A stretch of DNA of 56,403 nucleotides. Source: Bacteroidales bacterium. GTDB lineage: Bacteria; Bacteroidota; Bacteroidia; Bacteroidales; VadinHA17. The position numbers and the translations under genes were made by a program. The notes under the pieces are model-generated. The model was not told the origin of the DNA and did not search any database. It worked only from the letters and a program-made list of their open reading frames with translations. Numbering within the stretch: the stretch's first letter is position 1; every line of letters begins with the position of its first letter. Below are positions 9,612 to 43,838 of this stretch, one piece after another. The DNA is taken from assembly GCA_027067975.1 (NCBI GenBank), contig JAMOUS010000060.1:1-56403 (forward strand). Reading direction: 5' to 3'.

Positions 9612-11651
9612 TTATCTTCCGGTGATGACGATCTTCTTGGTCACGACCCCGAAGCGGGAGGTCATCCGCAGGTAGTAGACCCCCTCATCCAGCTGCTGGC
9701 GGTGCCAGAGGAAGGAGTGCATCCCTTTTTCCCCTGCCTCCTCACGGATGACGAAGAGCTCTTTGCCGGAGGCATCCCATAGGGAGATCACCACCTCCGT
9801 CCCGGCGGGCAGGGAATAGAGGATGCGTGTCACCTCCGCAAAGGGGTTGGGGTAGACGGACAGGTCGTAAACGCCTGTGGTCTCTTTCCTTTCGACGGTG
9901 ATGGAGGCCTGCAACTGGCAGCCGGCCGAGTCGGTGACGGTCACCTCATAGGTGCCGGCGCTGAGGGCGGTGAGTTCGGCGCCCCTGTCGCCGGTGTTCC
10001 AGCGGATCTCCCAGGGGGGCAGGCCGCTGGTGACGGCGAGGCGGATGGCGCCGTTGCCGCCGCCGGGGAGGACCTCATCCTCCACCTCGTAACGTATCCG
10101 TATCGAGTCGGCTGCCACGCGAAGGCTGTCTTCGGCCACACAACCGTAGGCGTCGGTCACCCGGATGCGGTACAGACCCGTGTCGTGCACGGCCAGCCAA
10201 CGCCCTTCGACGGCGCCGGGCGACCAGAGGTAGCGGACAAAGCCTTCGCCGGCGTCAAGGGTGTCACTCGCCCCCTCGCAGAGGTAGTGGATCTCTTCCG
10301 GCAGCTCGTACTGGAGCCGCGAGCAGGGGTCGAGCCACGACTGCAGGAAGAGGCCGTCGCGGTCGTAGGGTTCGCCCCGGCGGCCGGGGTGGTGGAGGAG
10401 GCCGCCGGCGGCCAGGCGCGGCGGCAACGGCGCCACCAGGAACGCCGGCGTCAGGGCGGCTTCGCCTCCCAGCCGCCGTGCCCAACGCAGCCGGCCCCCC
10501 TCCCACTCCGCCAGGAAGAGGGCGGCGCTCCTGCCGGGGGCCGCCAAGGTGTCGCCGGCGGCTGTCACCACGCGACGCCCCGACAGCAGGAGGAAGAAGA
10601 TGCGGCCGCGGGGGTCGACCGTCACCCGCTCGACCGCCTCGCAGAGGCTCCCGTCGAAGGTATGGAGATGTATGCCGAGGGTATCGTACACCAGGAGGAA
10701 GGCTTCGCCGCCACGGCGTGCGGTGACGGCGGTGTCGCCGCTGCGGAGTGTCCCCGCGAAGGTGCCACCCGCAAGCAGGGCGGCGCCGCCGGCCGCCAGA
10801 TCATGCAGTGTAAGGGAGGGTGCAACGGCGAGGGTCCGGAGGCGAAGATGTCCCTGCGGGTTGCGGCAGCCGGTAAAGAGGGCGGTCATGCCGCCGCCCA
10901 GCAGGAGCGTGTCGCCGCCGTCGAGCGTGCCGGTGAAGGTGCCGGCAAAGCAGAGGGTGTCCTCCCGTGCGGCAAGGCGCGGCACATGCACCGTCCCCGT
11001 AGTGCGGAGGAGGGACAGGTCCGGCGGCTGTCCGGGACGCAGGCGGAGGAAGAAAGCGTCGTCGCCGCCGCGGGCGCGCAGCGTGCGCCCCTGCCAGCGC
11101 ATCTTCAGGAAAACGCCGGCAGCATGGAGGCTGCCGCCGGGGCCGGCATACACGGCGGTGATCCTCCCCCGGAGGTCAGGGGTGATGAGGATGGCGTTCA
11201 CCCCCTCTCCTTTCGCGTTACAGGTGAGCATGAGGAGGCTGGGTCGTCCGCGCGAGGTGAAGGTGGTGCCCGCGGCGGCCACGCGCTCACGGAAGGCGAG
11301 GAAGAGCGTCCACGAGCCGTCGCGGCCGGCGGCGCCGCCCTGCACGTCGCACCCTCCGCGGCACGTCGCGATATCCTTCAGCATGACGAGCCGGCCGGCC
11401 GTATCCCAGGCCGCCACGAAGAGACCGTGTTCTCCGGTGGGCACCTCCACCTGCCGGCCGGCCAGCCTCAGCCTCCCGTCAAACATGCCGGCCAAATGTA
11501 CCGTGCCGGCCGTGTCGACCCCCGCGGCGGCCACCACCAGCGCACGCCCCTCCGCCCCCAGCGAATCCAAAGGGATATACCGCTGGGCCGACAACCAGAA
11601 CGGGAAACACAACAAGAAGCTCCAGGACAAAGAAAACGCGATCCGGAACAT
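9612..11651 (-). CDS. T9SS-sorted secreted protein: SBBP-like beta-propeller repeats, Ig-like domain, SprB repeat, Por_Secre_tail C-terminal domain
   Basis: 679-aa ORF with a signal peptide (MFRIAFSLSWSFLLCFPFWLSAQ). SprB repeat: GGGNGAIRLAVTSGLPPWEIRWNTGDRGAELTALSAGTYEVTVTDSAGC. T9SS type-A CTD: VYPNPFAEVTRILYSLPAGTEVVISLWDASGKELF...GVYYLRM. Confidence 0.85.
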   Translation of the reverse strand: MFRIAFSLSWSFLLCFPFWLSAQRYIPLDSLGAEGRALVVAAAGVDTAGTVHLAGMFDGRLRLAGRQVEVPTGEHGLFVAAWDTAGRLVMLKDIATCRGGCDVQGGAAGRDGSWTLFLAFRERVAAAGTTFTSRGRPSLLMLTCNAKGEGVNAILITPDLRGRITAVYAGPGGSLHAAGVFLKMRWQGRTLRARGGDDAFFLRLRPGQPPDLSLLRTTGTVHVPRLAAREDTLCFAGTFTGTLDGGDTLLLGGGMTALFTGCRNPQGHLRLRTLAVAPSLTLHDLAAGGAALLAGGTFAGTLRSGDTAVTARRGGEAFLLVYDTLGIHLHTFDGSLCEAVERVTVDPRGRIFFLLLSGRRVVTAAGDTLAAPGRSAALFLAEWEGGRLRWARRLGGEAALTPAFLVAPLPPRLAAGGLLHHPGRRGEPYDRDGLFLQSWLDPCSRLQYELPEEIHYLCEGASDTLDAGEGFVRYLWSPGAVEGRWLAVHDTGLYRIRVTDAYGCVAEDSLRVAADSIRIRYEVEDEVLPGGGNGAIRLAVTSGLPPWEIRWNTGDRGAELTALSAGTYEVTVTDSAGCQLQASITVERKETTGVYDLSVYPNPFAEVTRILYSLPAGTEVVISLWDASGKELFVIREEAGEKGMHSFLWHRQQLDEGVYYLRMTSRFGVVTKKIVITGR

Positions 11652-13604: not shown

Positions 13605-14160
13605 CAAGTGTCTCGAGCACTTCGAGTGCCTAAAGTTGGAAATTACAAGTGCCTAAAGTCAGTGACACCCGGATTCTGCAAGGCGAAGCCGCAGCGGAAT
13701 CCGCTGGTGGAACTGACCCTGACCGGAGCCGTAGGCGAAGCGTCAGGGTTACAAGAAAGTGCTTGGAGTACTTAAAGTGCTTAAAATTGCAAGTTACAAG
13801 TGACTAAAGTCAATGACACCCGGCTTTCGCGAAGCTTTAGCTGTAGCGAAAGCCGATGGTGGAACTGACCCTGACCGGAGCCGTAGGCGAAGCGTCAGGG
13901 TTACAAGAAAGTGCCTGGAGTACTTAAAGTGCCTAAAATTGCAAGTTACAAGTGACTAAAGTCAATGACACCCGGCTTTCGCGAAGCTTTAGCTGTAGCG
14001 AAAGCCGATGGTGGAATTGACCCTGACCGGAACGAAGTGGAGCGTCAGGGTTACAAAAAAGTGCCTGGAGTGCCTAGAGTTGAAAGTTACAAGTGCCTAA
14101 AGTCAGTGACACCCGCCTCGTGCGAGGCGTAGAAGAAGCGGAATCTGCCGGTGGGCCTGA
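13605..14160 (+). repeat. Tandem array of a ~151-bp structured unit (about 3.7 copies), locus B1
   Basis: Unit starts (AGTG[AC]CTAAAGTCA[AG]TGACACCCG) are at 13648, 13799, 13951 and 14092, preceded by a partial tail from ~13605. Each unit has hairpin 1 (e.g. CGGCTTTCGC...GCGAAAGCCG), hairpin 2 (ACCCTGAC...GTCAGGGT) and a 9-mer tail. Copies 2 and 3 are nearly identical over their first ~70 nt. Confidence 0.95.
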
Positions 14161-14356
14161 CTCGATACTCCATACTCCATACTCCATACTTCACTTTTGC
14201 CTTTTGCCTTACCGGCAAAGTTCTGAGTTCAGAGTATCGAGTATCGAGTTGGCTTTTGACAATGCCTGAACCCTTTTATCTTTTTCCTTTTGTCTTTTGT
14301 CCTGGCGAAGGCGGATCGCTTCATCGCATTATCGCTTCATCGTGTCCGTCGCAGCC
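14161..14356. repeat. Mosaic intergenic repeat, locus B2 (inverted heptamer arms, CTTTTGCC/CTTTTGTC 8-mers, CGCTTCAT 8-mers)
   Basis: 14161-14189 is the reverse complement of the heptamer run at ~1735-1763. 14193-14220 is CACTTTTGCCTTTTGCCTTACCGGCAAAG, with palindrome TTGCC..GGCAA. 14231-14250 carries forward heptamers. 14263-14310 is TGCCTGAACCCTTTTATC...CCTTTTGTCTTTTGTCCTGGCGAAG. 14316-14342 is a CGCTTCAT-type run. 14221-14356 is collinear with 43079-43261. Confidence 0.9.
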
Positions 14357-14510
14357 TCTTCGATCAACATAGCTTTAGCGAAGTTGATTAGCGGAGGCGG
14401 ATTATCTTTTATCATGTTGAGCTTCCCTGAAGCATCACCATTTCGTTGGCTGTGCATAAAAAGATGATTTATAACCGTTATCTTTATGGATCCGGAAAGG
14501 AGGGTTTTGG

Positions 14511-18223: not shown

Positions 18224-18253
18224 TTTCGTTAAAATTTATTGGTTAATAATTAG

Positions 18254-18331
18254 TTCTGAGTTATCGAGTATCGAGTATTGAGTATTGAGTATTGAGTATC
18301 GAGTATTGAGTATCGAGTCAGTGAGTCCCGG
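18254..18331 (+). repeat. Heptamer microsatellite block, locus C (8 phased AT[CT]GAGT units plus CAGTGAGTCCCG junction)
   Basis: 18263-18318 reads ATCGAGT ATCGAGT ATTGAGT ATTGAGT ATTGAGT ATCGAGT ATTGAGT ATCGAGT. It is flanked by GTTCTGAGTT (5') and CAGTGAGTCCCG (3'), the same edges as at loci A and B2. Confidence 0.95.
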
Positions 18332-18341
18332 ATTTCTTTTC

Positions 18342-33854: not shown

Positions 33855-34046
33855 TTCCGAAGATCTGAAATTCTGTCGTTCCCTGACCAGAAAGAGGAGA
33901 AAGGAGACATGTCTTCATAATTACCACTTTATCAATATTTTAGAAACAACTCCTCCCGTCTTGTCCTGTTAAAAATTCTTAAACATCCCGACTTCTCCGG
34001 ATTTGGTATGCAAATTGAGAGCATTCGGTCAGAAGGAGGAAAGATC

Positions 34047-37000
34047 ATGAAAAAAAGACTTTTCCGGCGTCTGCCGGTTTGGATGAAAGGCTTTTTCCTG
34101 TTTGTTTTTCTTTTGCCGGCACCTGCCAGCGCCCAGTACTTCGGCAGGAACAAGCCTTATTATAAAAAATTCCGGTACAAGGTTTACGAGACCCCCCATT
34201 TCGACATCTATTACTATCTGAAGAACGATTCGGTGCTCAACCAAATGGCGCGGATGAGTGAGGAGTGGTACCGTCTGCACCGTGAGAAGTTTAACATCGA
34301 CTTGAAGGGGCACAACCCCCTGTTCCTTTATAACAACCATGCGGATTTCCAGCAGACCACCACCATTTCGGGTGAGATCGGCATAGGCACCGGCGGGGTG
34401 ACCGAGGTGCTGAAGAACCGCATCGTCTTCCCCATTACCCCGATCTTTGCCCAAACCGATCATGTCCTGGGGCACGAGATGGTACATGCTTTCCAGTACA
34501 CCCTCATCCTCCACGGCGACTCGACCAATATGAGCTCGCTCAACAACCTGCCGCTATGGATGGTCGAGGGAATGGCCGAGTATTTCTCCATCGGCAGCCA
34601 CGATCCCCACACGGCGATGTGGATGCGCGACGCCATACTGCACGACAAGTTCCCCACTTTCAAGGATCTGAACACCGATCCTCGCTATTTCCCCTATCGG
34701 TGGGGCCAGGCGTTCTGGGCTTTTATCGGCAAAACGTGGGGCGATGATCTGATCGTCCCCCTTTTCCAGCGTACGGCCATGGTGGGCTACGAACAGGCGA
34801 TGAAGGATGTGCTGGGCCTGAGCGCCACCACCATCGAAGGAATGTGGAAAAGCGCCTATACCCTTTATTACAAAAAGTTCCTCCCCGACAGTGTGGAACA
34901 CCTGACAGGCGTCAAGGTGGCCTTCCCCGGCAATGCCGGCGACGTGAACGTTTCCCCTTCGCTCAGCCCCGACGGGAAATACCTTGTCTTCCTTTCCGAG
35001 AAGGACGTGATCTCGTTCGACCTCTTCCTGGCCGATGTGGCCAAACGCAAGGTGGTGAAACGCCTTTCGGCCACGGTACAACACCACGAGATCGACGCCA
35101 TGAACAACCTCGAGTCGGCCGGCACATGGTCGCCCGACAGTCGCTACTTTGCCTTCACCGTCTATGACAAGGGCAAGAATGCCTTGGTAATCGTCGATGT
35201 GAAGAGGAACAAGCTCTCGAAGAAGATCTTTGTGCCGGGGGTGCCGGCCTTCTACCAACCGGCCTGGTCACCCGACGGCCGCAGCATCGTCCTCGTGGGC
35301 CTTGTCGACGGCCAACCCGACCTCTTCCAATACTTCCTCGACAACGAGGAGGTGTACAAAATCACCAACGACCGTTACTCTTATCTCCATCCCTGCTGGT
35401 CGCATGACGGCCGTTACCTGGTGGTGGCCACCGACCGCACGCCCGTGCCGACCGACATGCCCTACCTCCATACCAACCTGGCACTGATCGACATGAAGAC
35501 GCACAAGATCACCGTCCTGCCCGTCTTCCCCGGCGCCGACAACCTCAACCCCCTCTTCTCGGTCGACGACCGGTCGATCTTCTTCCTCTCCGACCGTGAC
35601 GGGAAGCGCAACCTTTACCGTTATGATCTGGAGACGGGCAAGGTGTTCCAACTCACCGACTATGAAATCGGCATTACCGGCATCACCCAATACTCTCCGG
35701 CCGTGAGCATCTCTCGCCACGACAACGAGCTGGTCTATTCATATTATTCCGACAACAAATACACCATCTACAAGGCCTTGGTGAGCGACTTCCCCGAGAA
35801 AGAGGTGTCACCCGAGTCGGTCGACTTCGAGGCCGGCATCCTGCCTCCCCTACGCCATGTGGGGGTGAACATCGTCGACCGCGGGCTGATGCACCGCGAG
35901 CCCCTGACGGCCATCCACCCCGAGGATTACCTTAAGAAACCCTACAAAGCCCGTTTCCAGCTCGACTATATCTCCAACGTACAGGCGGGGATCAGCACCA
36001 ACAGTTTTGCCCGCGGCATGACCGGCAGTGTCTTTGCCATCTTCAGCGACATTGCCGGCACCCAGCAGCTTTTCACCGCGCTGGCTCTCAACGGGGAGAT
36101 CTACGACTTCGGCGGACAGATCACCTACATCAACCAAATGAACCGCCTCACCTGGGGCGCTTCGGTGTCGCATATTCCTTACATGAGCGGATATTCCTAC
36201 GTCAAACCCGACACGCTGCGGATAGGCGACCGTTATTACCTGGTCGACAACCTGGTGTATGACATCATCCGCACTTTCGAGGACAAAATCGAGCTGTACG
36301 CCTATTATCCCATCTCCACCACCAAACGTCTGGAGGCGGGGGTGTCGCAGGCATTTTACTACTATCGCATCGACGAGTGGAACAACTACTACGATCCGGT
36401 CTATGGGACCTACATGGGAGGCAATCGGCACAAACTCCCCGCCCCGAAAGGGTTCAACATGCAGACGGTGTATGCCGCTGCGGTGCTCGACAACTCCATC
36501 AACGGGCTGGCCTCGCCCATGCGCGGGGCACGGGGACGTCTCGAAGTGGAGAAATATTTCGGCGTATATGATTTCCTCGCGCTCACCGGCGACTACCGTA
36601 AATACTTTTACCTGCGCCCCCTCACTGTGGCGGCACGAGGGATCTACACCGGTCGCCTCGCCACCAACGGCCGTCAATTCTCTCTGTACCCCCTGACACC
36701 GAGCTATCCGTGGTATATGCATGGCTACGACAATTACAAGGTATTCGACGGCATGCCGGCCGACCAGGCCAGTTTTATCCTTGACCAGTTTTACGGCAAC
36801 CAAATGGCTGTGGCCAACATGGAGGTGCGGTTGCCCCTGGCAGGACCCAAGCGCCTCGGTCTTATCAAGGTAAAGTATTTCTATACCGAACTGGTTGGCT
36901 TCCTCGACGGCAGCCTCACCTGGGACCGCGGCGACCGCATTAGCCTCGACTACACCGATTACGATCCTTCCAACCGCGTGCCACTCTTCAGCACCGGCTT

Positions 37001-37118
37001 CTCGGCCCGTGTGAACGTCATGGGAGCCATTGTCGTGGAACCTTACTACGCCTGGCCCCTCATCGGCGACCGTATGGGACACGGATACTTCGGAGTAAAC
37101 TTCCTGCCAGGATGGTAA
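34047..37118 (+). CDS. Large envelope protein: HExxH zinc-metalloprotease-like domain, PD40/TolB-like beta-propeller repeats and a C-terminal Omp85-like beta-barrel
   Basis: ORF 34008..37118; start chosen at MKKRLFRRLPVWMKGFFLFVFLLPAPASAQ. HEMVHAF and ...WMVEGMAEY give an MA-clan-like protease motif. PD40 repeats are present (SPSLSPDGKYLVFLSEKD; PAWSPDGRSIVLV; PCWSHDGRYLVVATD). The C-terminal ~400 aa are beta-rich and end ...GVNFLPGW, an outer-membrane-protein-type aromatic terminus. Confidence 0.8.
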   Translation: MKKRLFRRLPVWMKGFFLFVFLLPAPASAQYFGRNKPYYKKFRYKVYETPHFDIYYYLKNDSVLNQMARMSEEWYRLHREKFNIDLKGHNPLFLYNNHADFQQTTTISGEIGIGTGGVTEVLKNRIVFPITPIFAQTDHVLGHEMVHAFQYTLILHGDSTNMSSLNNLPLWMVEGMAEYFSIGSHDPHTAMWMRDAILHDKFPTFKDLNTDPRYFPYRWGQAFWAFIGKTWGDDLIVPLFQRTAMVGYEQAMKDVLGLSATTIEGMWKSAYTLYYKKFLPDSVEHLTGVKVAFPGNAGDVNVSPSLSPDGKYLVFLSEKDVISFDLFLADVAKRKVVKRLSATVQHHEIDAMNNLESAGTWSPDSRYFAFTVYDKGKNALVIVDVKRNKLSKKIFVPGVPAFYQPAWSPDGRSIVLVGLVDGQPDLFQYFLDNEEVYKITNDRYSYLHPCWSHDGRYLVVATDRTPVPTDMPYLHTNLALIDMKTHKITVLPVFPGADNLNPLFSVDDRSIFFLSDRDGKRNLYRYDLETGKVFQLTDYEIGITGITQYSPAVSISRHDNELVYSYYSDNKYTIYKALVSDFPEKEVSPESVDFEAGILPPLRHVGVNIVDRGLMHREPLTAIHPEDYLKKPYKARFQLDYISNVQAGISTNSFARGMTGSVFAIFSDIAGTQQLFTALALNGEIYDFGGQITYINQMNRLTWGASVSHIPYMSGYSYVKPDTLRIGDRYYLVDNLVYDIIRTFEDKIELYAYYPISTTKRLEAGVSQAFYYYRIDEWNNYYDPVYGTYMGGNRHKLPAPKGFNMQTVYAAAVLDNSINGLASPMRGARGRLEVEKYFGVYDFLALTGDYRKYFYLRPLTVAARGIYTGRLATNGRQFSLYPLTPSYPWYMHGYDNYKVFDGMPADQASFILDQFYGNQMAVANMEVRLPLAGPKRLGLIKVKYFYTELVGFLDGSLTWDRGDRISLDYTDYDPSNRVPLFSTGFSARVNVMGAIVVEPYYAWPLIGDRMGHGYFGVNFLPGW

Positions 37119-37680
37119 GGCGACAAGGCCAAGACAAAAGACAAAAGGATATAGATAAAAGAAGGCCCGCCTTCGTCCGGTCACCCGGACTCCGGCGGAC
37201 GAGGAAGGCAAAAGGCAACCGTTTTTAGTATCGAGTTCGGAGTATGGAGTATCGAGTATCGAGTATCGAGTTTTCGTAGTACCAGCCTATCCCACGCTCC
37301 CCTCCGCTAGTTTTCCGGCGGCATCCAAATAGGCCTGTCTACCCTTACGCCACTCATCTGGATTGCCCCAAATGTACTTTCTTACCGATTGAATATTGGA
37401 GCATTGGAATTTGTAGTTTGGAATTTATTTGGAATTTGGAATTTTCCCGAAGGGATGCCTTCGGCAGGAATTTGGAATTTTCCGAAAAGGATGCCTCCGG
37501 CAGGAATTTTCCGAAAACTCCCAACTCGATACTGGGAACTCCGAACTCGGTACTTTGCCGGTAAGGCAAAAGGGTTAAGGCAAAAGGCAAAAGTGGAGTA
37601 TCGAGTTTGGAGTATCAAGTCAATTCCACCATCGTCTTTCGCATCGCCTCCGGCTCGCGAAAGCCGGGTGTCACTGACTT
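37119..37680. repeat. Mosaic intergenic repeat, locus D (largest; modules in both orientations)
   Basis: 37121-37160: reverse CTTTTGTC/CTTTTATC module. 37167-37209: GC-rich hairpin. 37227-37271: forward heptamers. 37406-37445: GGAATTT-type run. 37436-37515: two ~37-bp repeats, the first with hairpin CCGAAGG..CCTTCGG. 37521-37551: reverse heptamers. 37552-37594: reverse CTTTTGCC module with TTGCC..GGCAA. 37595-37620: forward heptamers. 37621-37680: reverse complement of the hairpin-1 module of the 13.6-kb array. Confidence 0.9.
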
Positions 37681-37683
37681 TAT

Positions 37684-40134
37684 TCATTCCCCCATCACCA
37701 CCACGGTGACGCCGGCGCCGCCGCGGTCGACATGTTCGTCGTGGCACCGTTCCACCAGCTCATGGGCGTGCAGGAAATCACGTATGGCTTCGCGCAGGAT
37801 ACCGTTGCCCTTACCGTGGATGATACGCAGTTCTTTTTCGCCGACCATGACGGCTTCGTCGAGGAAAGCGGTGACTTCCTGCAGGGCTTCTTCGACGCGT
37901 TTTCCGCGTATGTCGATCTCGGGACGGAAATGGATGCGGCGTTGCCGCATCTCCTCTTGCCATGGCGCCGGAGAGGCGCTGCGCCGCTGCCGCCGGCGGT
38001 ACTCCTCCTCACTCACCCCTTCCAGCTTGCCGGCAGCGACGTGGGTGGTGAGGTTGCCAAACGCCACCAGGCAGGTATCCCCCTTGACCGAGATCACCTC
38101 ACCCACCGTGTCGGTCCCTTTCATCCGCACCTTGCTCCCTGCGCGGAGGGAGAGGGTCGGGGCAGAGATCTCGGGCTCATGCTTTTTGCGGTGGCGTCGC
38201 ACCTCGCGGAGGTGTTGTTCCAGGCTCTTCTCCTCGGGAGGGTTCTGCTGCAACCGTTCTTTCAGCGCCTCCAGCTCCCGGCGGGCGGTGCGGGTACGTT
38301 CCTTCTCGGCCTGGGCTTCGCGGATCTCACGGATGGTACGTTCGATCTTGCGGTTGACGTCGGAGAGGAGCCGCCCCGCCTCCTCCTGGGCCTTGTCGAG
38401 GATCTCCCGGCGGCGGCGGCGCAGCGCCTCCATCTCCTGCTCATACTCCTCCAGCAATGCCTCCAGCCTTTTCTCCGCCTGCCGGATGCGACGGCGTTTG
38501 CTCTCCCAATAGCGTTTGTCGCGGAGGATCTCTTTGAGATGTTTGTCAAAGAGGACATGCTCCTCCCCCACCTTCGAGGCCGCCTCTTGCAGCACCTCCT
38601 CCGGCAGGCCGATGCGCCGTGCCATCTCGAAGGCGAAAGAACTGCCCGGCTTCCCGATATCCAGACGGTAGAGCGGCTGCATGTTGCCATGGTCGAAGAG
38701 CATCGCACCGTTGACGATGCCCTCTTCCGAGGCGGCCAGGTGCTTGAGGTTGGTATAGTGGGTGGTCACCACGCCATAGACGCCCTTGGCGTTGAGGCGC
38801 CGCAAGACGGTCTCGGCCAGCGCCCCGCCGAGCATCGGCTCGGTGCCGGTACCCAGCTCGTCCATGAGCACCAGGGTGGCAGGACCCGCATGGCGCAAAA
38901 AGTGTTTCATCGCCAACAGGCGTGAGCTGTAGGTACTCAGGTCGTTCTCGATCGACTGTTCGTCGCCCATGTCGAGGAAGATGCGGTCGAAGATCCCGAA
39001 GCGGCTTCCCGCCGCCACCGGCACGGGCAGGCCGCACTGCAACATGTATTGCAACAGGCCCACCGTCTGCAGGCATACCGATTTTCCGCCTGCGTTGGGA
39101 CCGGAGATGACGAGGATGCGTTGGTGCCCGTTCAGCTCGATGTCGAGGGGCACCACCTGGCGGCCCTCTTTCCGGAAGTTGACCACCAGCAGCGGGTGAC
39201 GGGCCTGGTGCCAGGCGACGAGGGGTCTCTCCTCCACCGCAGGGACACTCCCCTGGAGGTCGCGGCCGAAGAGGGCCTTGGCCCGCACCAGGTCGATCTC
39301 TCCAAGCCGGGCAGCGGAAGCAAGCAGTTCAGGCACATACGGACGCACCTGGCGGGTGAGCTCCTGCAGGATCCGTTCGATCTCCCGTTCCTCGGCAAAG
39401 CCCAGGGAACGGATGTCATTGTTGATCTCAACGATCTCTGCCGGTTCGACATAGACGGTACGTCCCGTAGCCGACTCGTCGACGATGATGCCGGGAATCC
39501 GGCGTTTGTGGGTGGCAGGCAGGGGGATGACCATACGCCCCTGCCGCAAGGTGGGGGCGGCGTCGTCCTCGACCCATCCGGCCCGGCGCGCCTGTTGCAG
39601 GATCCCCTGCAGCCGGGCAGAGAGTCCCTGGCGACGGGCAGAGAGTTCGGCCCGGATCCTGCGCAGCGCGGGCGAGGCCGTATCCTTTACCGTACCCCGC
39701 GGTGTGAGCACCCGGTCAATGTGCTCCAGCAACACCGGATAATAACGCACCGCCCCCATCATCTCCCGCAAACGGGGATACCGCTCCCCATCCAGACCTT
39801 TCGCAAAGCGGGCCACCGCCCGCATGGTCTCCAGCGACCGCCGCAGGTCGTAAAGCTCCTCTATGCTCATTACCGTCCCCTCGGCGGCGATGCGTTCCAG
39901 CACCGGCGTCATGTCGATCATGCTCCCGGCAGGGAGGTCTTTCCCCTCTTCCAGCAAGCCCATGAACTCTTCCGTCACGTGCAGAACTTCCCGGATGCGG
40001 CCGGCTTCCGTCGCAAAGGAGATCTTCTCCAGCTCCCGTTCCCCCATGGGCGAAAGCAGATGACTCCCCACCAGGCGGCGGATATGCCCGAACCCCAACT
40101 TCTCCTCTATGTTGTCAGGATAGTTCCCCGTCAT
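37684..40134 (-). CDS. mutS2: Endonuclease MutS2 (MutS domain V ATPase + C-terminal Smr domain)
   Basis: 816-aa ORF. Walker A ISGPNAGGKS, DELGTGTEP, a long K/E/R coiled coil, and Smr: EIDIRGKRVEEALQEV...LRIIHGKGNGILR. Confidence 0.95.
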   Translation of the reverse strand: MTGNYPDNIEEKLGFGHIRRLVGSHLLSPMGERELEKISFATEAGRIREVLHVTEEFMGLLEEGKDLPAGSMIDMTPVLERIAAEGTVMSIEELYDLRRSLETMRAVARFAKGLDGERYPRLREMMGAVRYYPVLLEHIDRVLTPRGTVKDTASPALRRIRAELSARRQGLSARLQGILQQARRAGWVEDDAAPTLRQGRMVIPLPATHKRRIPGIIVDESATGRTVYVEPAEIVEINNDIRSLGFAEEREIERILQELTRQVRPYVPELLASAARLGEIDLVRAKALFGRDLQGSVPAVEERPLVAWHQARHPLLVVNFRKEGRQVVPLDIELNGHQRILVISGPNAGGKSVCLQTVGLLQYMLQCGLPVPVAAGSRFGIFDRIFLDMGDEQSIENDLSTYSSRLLAMKHFLRHAGPATLVLMDELGTGTEPMLGGALAETVLRRLNAKGVYGVVTTHYTNLKHLAASEEGIVNGAMLFDHGNMQPLYRLDIGKPGSSFAFEMARRIGLPEEVLQEAASKVGEEHVLFDKHLKEILRDKRYWESKRRRIRQAEKRLEALLEEYEQEMEALRRRRREILDKAQEEAGRLLSDVNRKIERTIREIREAQAEKERTRTARRELEALKERLQQNPPEEKSLEQHLREVRRHRKKHEPEISAPTLSLRAGSKVRMKGTDTVGEVISVKGDTCLVAFGNLTTHVAAGKLEGVSEEEYRRRQRRSASPAPWQEEMRQRRIHFRPEIDIRGKRVEEALQEVTAFLDEAVMVGEKELRIIHGKGNGILREAIRDFLHAHELVERCHDEHVDRGGAGVTVVVMGE

Positions 40135-40150
40135 AGAAGGCCTTGGATAT

Positions 40151-40195
40151 ACCTATTTAAATATCTATTTAAACACCTATTTAAATACCTATTTT
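40151..40195. repeat. AT-rich 12-nt direct repeat x3.75 immediately upstream of mutS2
   Basis: ACCTATTTAAAT (40151-40162), ATCTATTTAAAC (40163-40174), ACCTATTTAAAT (40175-40186), ACCTATTTT (40187-40195). The block ends 16 nt from the mutS2 start codon (40134) and sits in otherwise GC-rich DNA. Confidence 0.9.
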
Positions 40196-40221
40196 CAGGC
40201 AGCGGCATTCTAGATGAAGGA

Positions 40222-43078: not shown

Positions 43079-43261
43079 AGTTCGGAGTTCGGAGTTCCGA
43101 GTTTGGAGTCCCGAGTATCGAGTTGGGAATTGAAAAAATTGCCTGAACCCTTTTATCTTTTGCCTTTTGTCTTTTGTCTTGGCGAAGCCTCATCGCTTCA
43201 TCACATTATCGCTTTATCGCTTCATCGCTTCATCGTGTCCACCGTAGCCGCAGGCGGAGCG
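43079..43261 (+). repeat. Mosaic intergenic repeat, locus E (heptamers, CTTTTGYC 8-mers, CGCTTCAT 8-mers)
   Basis: 43079-43127: AGTTCGG AGTTCGG AGTTCCG AGTTTGG AGTCCCG AGTATCG AGTTGGG. 43139-43184: TGCCTGAACCCTTTTATCTTTTGCCTTTTGTCTTTTGTCTTGGCGAAG, about 50 of 52 identical to 14263-14310. 43186-43233: CGCTTCAT-type run. It fills the whole gap between the convergent stops of yaaA and rnfA. Confidence 0.9.
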
Positions 43262-43265
43262 TGCT

Positions 43266-43838
43266 TCACACCAGTCCTGCAAATCCCATGAAAGCCATGG
43301 AAAGGATGCCGGCGACGACGAAGGCGATGGGGATGCCTTTCATCCCCTTGGGCACCTCGACCAGTTCGAGCGACTCGCGGATGCTGGAGAGGAGCACCAG
43401 CGCCAGCCCGAAGCCGATGGCCGTGGCAAAAGAAAAGACCACCGCCTCGGGCAGGTTGTATTTGTCTTGGATGGTGAGGATCGCCACGCCCAGCACGGCA
43501 CAGTTGGTGGTGATCAACGGCAGGAAGATGCCGAGTGCCTGGTAAAGGTCAGGGCTCACCTTTTTCAGCACGATCTCGACCAACTGAACCAGGGCGGCGA
43601 TGACCAGGATGAAAGTGATGGTCTGCATGAAGTCGATGCCCAGCGGTACGAGAATATAATACTGGATCAGGTAGGTGGCGATGGTGGCCAGCACCATCAC
43701 GAAGGCCACGGCCCCTGTCATGCCCACCGAGGTCTCCAGTCGCGAGGAAACCCCCATGAAGGGACAGATTCCCAGAAACTTGGCCAGGACAATGTTATTG
43801 ACAAAGATCGCCGAGATGATGATAACGAAATATTCCAT
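43266..43838 (-). CDS. rnfA: Rnf electron-transport complex subunit A
   Basis: 190-aa polytopic ORF. IFVNNIVLAKFLGICPFMGVS... is characteristic of RnfA/RsxA. It is the last gene of the rnf operon. Confidence 0.95.
   Translation of the reverse strand: MEYFVIIISAIFVNNIVLAKFLGICPFMGVSSRLETSVGMTGAVAFVMVLATIATYLIQYYILVPLGIDFMQTITFILVIAALVQLVEIVLKKVSPDLYQALGIFLPLITTNCAVLGVAILTIQDKYNLPEAVVFSFATAIGFGLALVLLSSIRESLELVEVPKGMKGIPIAFVVAGILSMAFMGFAGLV

Follow-up and report, generated by a model that had tools for sequence, protein, structure and literature searches.

Mosaic repeats in intergenic DNA have been examined in depth in Proteobacteria and Cyanobacteria, and the locus described here recalls several of the known systems. 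The REP/BIME elements of Enterobacteria and Pseudomonas (REPIN/RAYT) are, like the repeats reported below, many-copy extragenic imperfect palindromes that form mosaics with other short motifs, lie between co-transcribed genes and at gene ends, and are known substrates of rearrangement. The NIMEs of Neisseria, in which RS units are bounded by dRS3, and the Correia elements similarly comprise intergenic arrays of 50-150-bp units that mix families and mark rearrangement breakpoints. A further resemblance is to intergenic tandem heptamers, namely the STRR (units CCCCAGT, TTGGTCA and CAACAGT), the heptanucleotide LSSR and the TAACTGA repeats, which occur as several units per genome, are restricted to lineages, frequently lie against start or stop codons and are not known to serve any function; period-7 arrays are likewise far above chance in the present organism. 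TAACTGA repeats have been reported from Beggiatoaceae, Cyanobacteria and some Bacteroidetes, where several heptamer repeats are mixed within spacers (PMC4679880); the same paper describes heptanucleotide arrays as abundant and summarises the work of Mrazek et al. 2007 on such "long simple sequence repeats" (LSSR). Among bacterial inversions, flanking inverted repeats are the usual pattern (PMC5372343). Our literature search found no account of intergenic mosaic repeats in the Bacteroidota/Chlorobiota group.

The DNA analysed here, a stretch of 56,403 nucleotides referred to as the window, comes from a metagenome-assembled genome of an uncultured member of that group; the nearest relative of its MutS2 is 75% identical, and the named matches are "Bacteroidales bacterium" or "Chlorobi bacterium" MAGs. 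A PD40/Tricorn-like peptidase ORF (34008-37118, plus strand, TAA stop at 37116-37118) and mutS2 (37684-40134, minus strand, TGA stop at 37684-37686, product with MutS_V and Smr domains) converge on a 565-nt spacer, 37119-37683, with a G+C content of 48.7% against about 56% in the surroundings. We consider it rather probable that this gap is at once a copy of a lineage-specific intergenic repeat mosaic and a rearrangement junction, the flip having come about by recombination between mosaics.

For comparison we used a further 227 kb that derive from this organism or one very close to it, consisting of 27 stretches of the JGI metagenome Ga0256835. These were retrieved with a gapped pattern of a 60-nt hairpin, hairpin-1, which picked out 30 stretches in JGI metagenomes, 27 of them from Ga0256835; the other three proved to be chance matches in GC-rich coding DNA. 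Because the loci outside the window were selected for having hairpin-1, module densities there are biased upwards, and the census figures given below, which use gene calls from a rough in-house codon-usage caller, describe the mosaics and not their genome-wide density. The modules of the gap, recovered with TRF and a repeat finder, are as follows, with three related features from the far end of the adjoining segment listed last.

37128-37160, minus strand: CTTTTGTC/CTTTTATC heptamer module (GACAAAA/GATAAAA on the plus strand), present at many loci
37164-37200: GC-rich palindrome, GUCCGCC..GUCCGG-GUGA-CCGGAC..GGCGGGC, with related copies at three other loci (L097, L109 and L110)
37205-37218, minus strand: CTTTTGCC in two copies (GGCAAAA on the plus strand)
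37226-37271, plus strand: forward GAGTATC/GAGTTCG/GAGTATG heptamer array, left arm of an inverted pair
37272-37400: core module, a dispersed non-coding repeat with at least eight further copies at 82-96% identity
37404-37444, plus strand: GGAATTT-type heptamer run
37431-37509, plus strand: 36-nt unit in 2.2 copies, each with a small hairpin of the CCGAAGG-GATG-CCTTCGG type
37512-37555, minus strand: reverse heptamer array, right arm of the inverted pair
37552-37593, minus strand: CTTTTGCC array (block 37563-37593) with the TTACCGGCAAAGT linker
37594-37620, plus strand: GAGTATC heptamers (ATACTCC in the orientation of the composite)
37619-37678, minus strand: hairpin-1, the 60-nt covarying hairpin, beginning 5 nt past the mutS2 stop in the mutS2 sense
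37521-37682, minus strand: composite C, made of hairpin-1, ATACTCC heptamers, CTTTTGCC, the TTACCGGCAAAGT linker and GAGTTC heptamers
13606-14125, plus strand: 152-nt unit in 3.1-3.4 copies (nonamers, hairpin-1 and hairpin-2), at the other junction in the window contig
14092-14162, plus strand: 71-nt stretch (hairpin-1 copy 4), exact in two MEGAHIT contigs that diverge on opposite sides of it
14098-14252, plus strand: matching copy of composite C, on the far side of the DUF7033...PD40 segment

A preliminary description of this DNA had presented the gap as 562 nt of repeat-derived sequence. The repeat origin stands, as 557 of the 565 positions are matched elsewhere (E<=1e-4, at least two hits each, in the rest of the window and the 227 kb of other contigs) and only 37119-37126 found no match in that search, whereas the length is to be corrected to 565 nt. 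Every module listed there was recovered. The forward and reverse heptamers, which had been thought able to pair, indeed form 43-nt arms that are 77% complementary (the right arm to 37234-37276) and 235 nt apart; the reverse CTTTTGCC block, likened to 14193-14220, is present at 37563-37593, and the 22 nt at 37552-37573 are identical, as reverse complement, to 14200-14221; and the reverse-complement hairpin-1 module placed at the end of the gap is present at 37619-37678. The GGAATTT run and a pair of ~37-bp repeats had been regarded as seen only here, which holds within the window but not beyond it: they recur at seven other loci (L095, L100, L105, L109, L112, L115 and L123), the 36-nt unit itself at five of these (L100, L105, L109, L115 and L123). 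The heptamers are far from chance occurrences, with 33 matches to two and a half units of GAGTWYN in the window against none in 100 shuffles, and 10 matches to two units of CTTTTRY against 0.1 expected from shuffles. The first module of the gap, 37128-37160, is 91% identical to the reverse complement of both 14273-14306 and 43150-43183; it is of the CTTTTGT/CTTTTAT type and U-rich on the mutS2-sense strand.

The gap centre of about 130 nt, 37272-37400, had been left undescribed and is itself a dispersed module. A small minus-strand ORF within it, ending ...SVRKYIWGNPDEWRKGRQAYLDAAGKLAEGSVG*, was considered and rejected as a coding sequence: the other copies carry frameshifts and deletions, and no match to it was found in the relatives or in the rest of the window. 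As its copies differ by frameshifts, the core module is taken to be non-coding.

Elsewhere in the window the same vocabulary of modules occurs at four places only, all of them intergenic (1732-1937, 13623-14431, 18262-18331 and 43084-43313), and it consists of period-7 arrays (GAGTATC, GAGTTCG, CTTTTGC/T, GGAATTT), period-8 and period-9 arrays, the 60-nt hairpin, a second hairpin and the ~130-nt core. Across window and added stretches, a map of repeated 13-mers (11-mers were too noisy) delimits 69 regions that together take up 19.5 kb (of 283 kb), with about 93% of this length lying outside predicted genes, and none of 220 matches to eight module patterns and none of 40 hairpin-1 copies fell inside a gene. 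The mosaics fill gaps of every type (16 convergent, 22 co-directional, 11 divergent) and often reach within a few bases of stop or start codons, as at 1732-1941, which stops 3 nt before an ATG. The 40 exact-pattern copies of hairpin-1, 38 of them distinct, comprise 6 in the window and 34 on the 27 Ga0256835 stretches, and a search with nhmmer gave 61 hits in 283 kb of the organism against none in 143 kb of its relatives. Over 21 pairs, 95.2% of cells are paired and 11 pairs show compensatory double changes; the covariation score and the percentage paired were reached by 0 of 500 shuffles and the count of 11 pairs by 2 of 500, and slid controls were 19-47% paired. Rfam 15 gave no hit at gathering score in the whole window and none at E<=1 in the gap, with one chance-level match of the array to a plant miRNA; hairpin-1 had no hit in viral contigs (IMG/VR), among which one unrelated AT-rich contig carries (GAGTATG)x9; and the 17-mer AAAGTCARTGACACCCG found 79 single chance hits in unrelated taxa among GTDB representatives, none extending past the 17-mer, the organism's own genome not being among those representatives.

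The modules are combined in a restricted number of orders, from which arise higher-order tandem units of 152 nt and 368 nt. At the left junction the hairpin-1 copies at 13658, 13809, 13961 and 14102 run in direct orientation with a spacing of 152 nt, and six further loci (L095, L098, L100, L107, L121 and L122) show such direct series; the core module belongs to the 368-nt unit, which stands 2.2 times in tandem at locus L112. This organization speaks against the earlier proposal of repeated nested insertion at the locus. Some 480 nt of the gap (37205-37682) are found in the same order at L109, and in part at L105, at about 80% identity, and the gap was therefore not assembled piecemeal in place; the direct-plus-inverted heptamer pattern corresponds to a higher-order unit iterated in tandem, as in the 368-nt series of L112. 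The scrambled look of the gap would thus reflect a hierarchical repeat system with a limited grammar and not piecemeal insertion at this site.

Could the mosaic have been selected for a task at the RNA level, its hairpins ending or stabilizing the PD40 and mutS2 transcripts in place of canonical terminators? Hairpin-1 begins 5 nt past the mutS2 stop, has a predicted free energy of -36 kcal/mol in the mutS2 sense (z -5.0) and covaries across 40 copies. The mutS2-sense strand also carries the GC palindrome 37164-37200 followed by a U-rich CUUUUGU array; on the minus strand the palindrome followed by CUUCUUUUAUCU has a terminator-like appearance. As the preliminary description had remarked, neither gene has a canonical T-tract terminator in the gap; one terminator-like hairpin with a T-rich tail is present on the minus strand (37174->37161), but such sites are no more frequent than in shuffles (1 against 1.3 expected), and hairpin-1 has no adjacent U tract. 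G.U cells in hairpin-1 slightly exceed A.C cells (about 21 against 14), a strand test that is not decisive. Against such a role, the modules show no orientation bias in co-directional gaps (CTTTTGY 4:4, hairpin-1 7:3) and, relative to the upstream gene, sense to antisense ratios are 20:14 for CTTTTGY and 21:15 for hairpin-1; the GAGTWYN arrays are the sole module that leans to the sense strand of the upstream gene (22:7, p 0.008). The same modules fill divergent and co-directional gaps up to the start codons, 565 nt is far beyond the need of termination, and the clade does use canonical hairpin-plus-T-tract terminators (L124, 5235-5270, and the citrate synthase/PPDK gaps of L126 and L127). Selection for an RNA-level task is accordingly an unlikely account of the mosaic, and a terminator function of the predicted hairpins is not favoured, nor is it proven.

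The gene order of the relatives places the gap in a different light. In L002, L004/L005 and L006, mutS2 is followed co-directionally by DUF7033 and then by acetyltransferase, AhpC, Fur and other genes. In L088 the order is PD40, adh_short, a 303-aa protein, Por-tail, RHS, SpoU and Cpn10, and L093, the closest relative (85% aa), likewise has adh_short after PD40. Orthology was checked for adh_short (75% aa), and the window DUF7033 is 62% identical in amino acids to that of L002. In the window, Cpn10, SpoU, RHS, Por-tail, the 303-aa protein and adh_short come first, all opposite to L088, and are followed by the 13.6-kb array and by DUF7033; further right stand DUF7033 ... PD40, the gap and the reversed mutS2. 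One inversion of approximately 14.3-37.5 kb, a segment of 23 kb, would turn the ancestral order into that of the window, and the gap would then be one junction of the rearrangement that parted mutS2 from DUF7033 and PD40 from adh_short. The comparison of the gap with related genomes that had been suggested earlier shows mutS2->DUF7033 and PD40->adh_short in every relative compared and PD40 facing mutS2 here.

The DUF7033...PD40 segment is bracketed by inverted copies of the ~160-nt composite C. Aligned over 162 nt, the copy at 14098-14252 and the reverse complement of 37521-37682 share 76% identity (E 3e-28) and the 22-nt identical core. The recombination among family members envisaged in the preliminary description is supported and takes on a specific form, an inverted segment with inverted 160-nt composites at both ends. 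Such flanking inverted repeats, whose identical core holds a small palindrome, together with alternative junctions at the left end in one sample, might also be expected of a programmed, reversible invertible region acted on by a site-specific recombinase at a short core such as the TTGCC-GGTAA-GGCAA palindrome. This we regard as highly improbable: no recombinase or invertase domain is present among the annotated window genes, neither assembly contains the ancestral orientation, nor does any contig show the segment the other way round, the alternative junction continues to citrate synthase and not to a flipped arrangement, and the same linker is present at numerous loci (10 matches).

A second assembly of the same population (MEGAHIT, k=141) bears on both ends of the segment. 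It reproduces the gap without a single difference (601 of 601 nt) on a 40-kb contig, which extends from DUF7033, by way of PD40 and mutS2, as far as recG and includes both inverted C copies. At the left end the assemblies disagree. From the RHS gene onward, across adh_short and the array (here shorter by one 152-nt unit), contig k141_383628 matches the window at 100% as far as hairpin-1 copy 4; beyond that copy come a paralogous mosaic (~88%), then a canonical terminator and citrate synthase. Contig k141_687212 arrives at this 71-nt hairpin copy with another left flank, one that ends ...KLILVYTEL*. The two contigs are the expected products of a reciprocal exchange across the 71-nt stretch starting from the window arrangement, and the adh_short|DUF7033 junction is supported by the window contig alone. 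Either the window contig would be chimeric at 14092-14162 or the population would be polymorphic there. The relatives have citrate synthase and PPDK facing each other, with a canonical bidirectional terminator in between; the left flank of k141_687212 was considered as PPDK and rejected, the C-termini being different (...KLILVYTEL* against ...KEKMGK*). Because the assemblies conflict at the left junction and this flank is not PPDK, the history of rearrangement may have taken more than one event. A further difference between the assemblies is one octamer unit at 43206-43213, and the differences in unit number fit arrays that gain and lose units, although differences between assemblers are possible too.

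The conflict at the left junction, with its switch across an identical hairpin-1 copy of 71 nt, raises the question of whether the gap, or the whole inversion, could be an artefact of contigs mis-joined through repeats. The nearest other copies of the blocks of the gap, only 76-81% identical, are too divergent to mislead an assembler; the exact agreement with the independent k=141 contig, and the presence of both inverted C copies on that same contig, likewise speak against an artefact, which we deem barely credible as an explanation.

Relatives at 62-85% protein identity share the habit and not the units. Hairpins and period-7/8 arrays of different unit sequences stand right after the same stop codons: the mosaic of L088 has the units GCATAGA and AACCTCT, that of L093 a CCTGCCTGCC...GGCAGGCAGG hairpin followed by GTTGAAG-type units, and those of L004 and L006 yet other units. 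TRF period-7 arrays number 27.9 per 100 kb in the organism's own sequence (a biased sample), 14.0 in relatives and 1.8 in 600 kb of unrelated bacteria, which makes them about 8-15 times commoner in the species and its relatives than in unrelated bacteria.

These comparisons bear on the proposal that the modules are non-autonomous mobile elements, REP/RAYT-like or MITE-like, which colonized the spacers after the break and are its consequence and not its cause. In keeping with mobility, blocks of several hundred nucleotides reappear, ~80% identical, at unrelated loci, the hairpins covary and are strictly confined to extragenic DNA, as REPs are, and the family is missing from relatives whose proteins are 68-85% identical and would on this proposal be a recent expansion; the mutS2/DUF7033 spacer of the closest mutS2 relative, moreover, is only 1 nt long. 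On the other hand, no Y1 or other transposase is present among the annotated window genes, and a Pfam scan of 44 small ORFs of 105-235 aa from the 227 kb, a small fraction of the genome, found no RAYT or transposase, only housekeeping families (the ORFs had been joined into 10 pseudo-proteins, and Serglycin hits were artefacts of the GS linkers). There are no target-site duplications, the direct-plus-inverted flanks fitting higher-order tandem repetition, and the units stand in direct tandem and not in alternating orientation. Mosaics of hairpins and heptamers, of other sequence, are also already present at both ancestral spacers in other relatives. Colonization by mobile elements after the break is therefore possible but appreciably less likely than recombination between mosaics.

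For the latter reading, we propose that inverted copies of the mosaic were already present in both ancestral spacers and that homologous recombination between them would have flipped the 23-kb segment. The gap would consequently be a hybrid of two older mosaics, whose arrays may have continued to change through slippage and the gain and loss of units. No dedicated function would be needed, as the mosaic could persist as self-propagating or tolerated spacer DNA, its hairpins perhaps incidentally stopping or stabilizing the converging transcripts. Weighing against this reading, identity between the two C copies reaches only 76%, with hairpin-1 parts from different subfamilies, and an identical stretch of 22 nt is marginal for RecA-type exchange. 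Composites of the C type are also common (L109, L116, L120), and their presence at both junctions could therefore be partly coincidence or later colonization.

A more speculative view, to which we assign a low probability, holds that the recombination and extension of the arrays is a dedicated, clade-specific process and not passive slippage with rare RecA events. Candidate agents would be an enzyme that recognizes the hairpins and starts or lengthens 7-nt arrays, or a binding protein for DNA or RNA with a 7-nt period, and mosaic recombination would then actively reshuffle gene order within a living population. Three observations bear on such a process: the abundance of period-7 arrays of unrelated unit sequence in the species and its relatives, the recurrence of these arrays beside covarying hairpins in this species, and the likeness of the alternative junctions in one sample to reciprocal crossovers within a 71-nt hairpin.

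Recombination between mosaics, the reading preferred here, concerns a hierarchical, strictly extragenic system of tandem arrays and structured hairpins in an uncultured lineage. This system turns over faster than species diverge, each relative having its own units, and it coincides with breakpoints in gene order, while two assemblies of one population differ in unit number and possibly in a junction. Contigs of such genomes may be mis-joined, or truly polymorphic, at identical hairpins of 70 nt, and inferences of synteny from such MAGs consequently need checks at the level of reads.

Set against the known systems, the locus departs from each in defining ways. In contrast to REP/BIME, its hairpin is about 60 nt long and not 20-40 nt, its units stand in direct tandem and not in alternating orientation with defined linkers, large period-7/8/9 arrays are an integral part, sequence similarity is lacking, and no RAYT (Y1/HUH transposase, PF01797) was found in the ~340 kb examined. 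The unit borders of the 152-nt array and of the composites have no common short inverted repeat equivalent to the ~20-bp dRS3 of NIMEs, and the locus differs from NIMEs and Correia elements in phylum and sequence and in showing no sign of a tie to phage integration (0 hits for hairpin-1 among viral contigs). The inverted heptamer arms (43 nt, 77%) recall a MITE, but the direct GGCAAAA arrays that flank them are parts of the next higher-order unit, and target-site duplication and transposase were both absent from the sequence searched. Compared with the inversions flanked by repeats (PMC5372343), the segment is similarly longer than 10 kb, with inverted repeat copies at its ends and signs of breakpoint reuse, whereas the repeats here are ~160 nt, 76% identical and non-coding, and are not IS elements, rRNA operons or duplicated genes. 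The units GAGTATC, GAGTTCG, CTTTTGC/T and GGAATTT differ from those of STRR and TAACTGA repeats, and, unlike in STRR or LSSR, the arrays are tied to specific covarying hairpins in a recurrent order, are built into units of 152 nt and 368 nt, and consist of different heptamers in each related species. Judged by the features that define them, the element is outside REP/BIME, NIME, MITE and the named STRR. Like these systems it appears to serve as a substrate of rearrangement, and its general kind is that of intergenic mosaic repeats, with a hierarchy distinct from theirs.

Several spacers of the window contain repeats, drawn in part from the intergenic family that includes hairpin-1 (a 60-nt covarying hairpin), hairpin-2, heptamers and nonamers:

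1713-1944, between a URO-D/thioredoxin fusion gene and a co-directional cobW-like gene: filled with heptamers, hairpin-1, hairpin-2 and nonamers
18224-18341, spacer between ahpC and fur: GAGTATY heptamer array of eight copies and a truncated hairpin-1
40149-40194, array within the 87-nt spacer 40135-40221 between a 223-aa gene and the start of mutS2: ATACCTATTTAA 12-mer, 3.8 copies

As the repeats in the first of these end 3 nt short of the ATG, any translation-initiation signal must lie inside them. The 87-nt spacer is occupied by its 12-mer repeat at the position where relatives carry a Peptidase_S9 (prolyl oligopeptidase) gene that is missing from the window, and the window also lacks the LIP/Peptidase_S9-like gene found after fur in relatives. 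Separately, G+C content, usually 0.52-0.63 across the window, reaches 0.72 at 10001-11000, within a 679-aa Por-secretion-tail gene.

The arrays differ in unit number between assemblies of the same population. In the second assembly, the MEGAHIT contig L124 has the array of 152-nt units, each composed of nonamers, hairpin-1 and hairpin-2, shorter by exactly one unit (window 13776-13927) with 100% identity in the flanks, which reflects either copy-number variation or a difference between assemblers. An 8-nt indel (43206-43213) between the window and contig k141_687212 falls in the octamer array of the mosaic at 43.1 kb and corresponds to one TTATCGCT octamer unit. At 14092-14162 lies a 71-nt hairpin-1 copy that is identical in L124 and a second MEGAHIT contig, L007. 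The two contigs part at opposite ends of the copy: one continues into a paralogous mosaic and then citrate synthase, while the other reaches the copy from a gene end reading ...KLILVYTEL*. The window contig may therefore be chimeric at this point, or the population polymorphic.

A higher-order tandem repeat was found within a 1.1-kb intergenic region of L112, from this organism or one very close to it:

L112 2450-3253, 368-nt unit, 2.2 copies with 95% matches: includes the ~130-nt core module of the gap at 37119-37683

A CCTGCCTGCC...GGCAGGCAGG hairpin module occurs in the intergenic mosaics of two separate relatives (L093 4440-4480 and L006 7840-7882) and in none of the window regions that were read. 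Exchange or retention of hairpin families appears not to be tied to that of the heptamer families. The AT-rich viral contig L128 (IMGVR_UViG_3300037067_001611) contains (GAGTATG)x9.4 at 564-629, a heptamer also present in the window, and no other module of the family, and the match is probably coincidental.

Canonical bidirectional terminators, consisting of an A-tract, a GGCCGGA...TCCGGCC stem and a T-tract, are present 3' of citrate synthase both in relatives and in the window organism:

L126 8517-8581, relative
L127 5207-5602, relative
L124 5235-5270, window organism

Standard intrinsic terminators are therefore in use in this clade.
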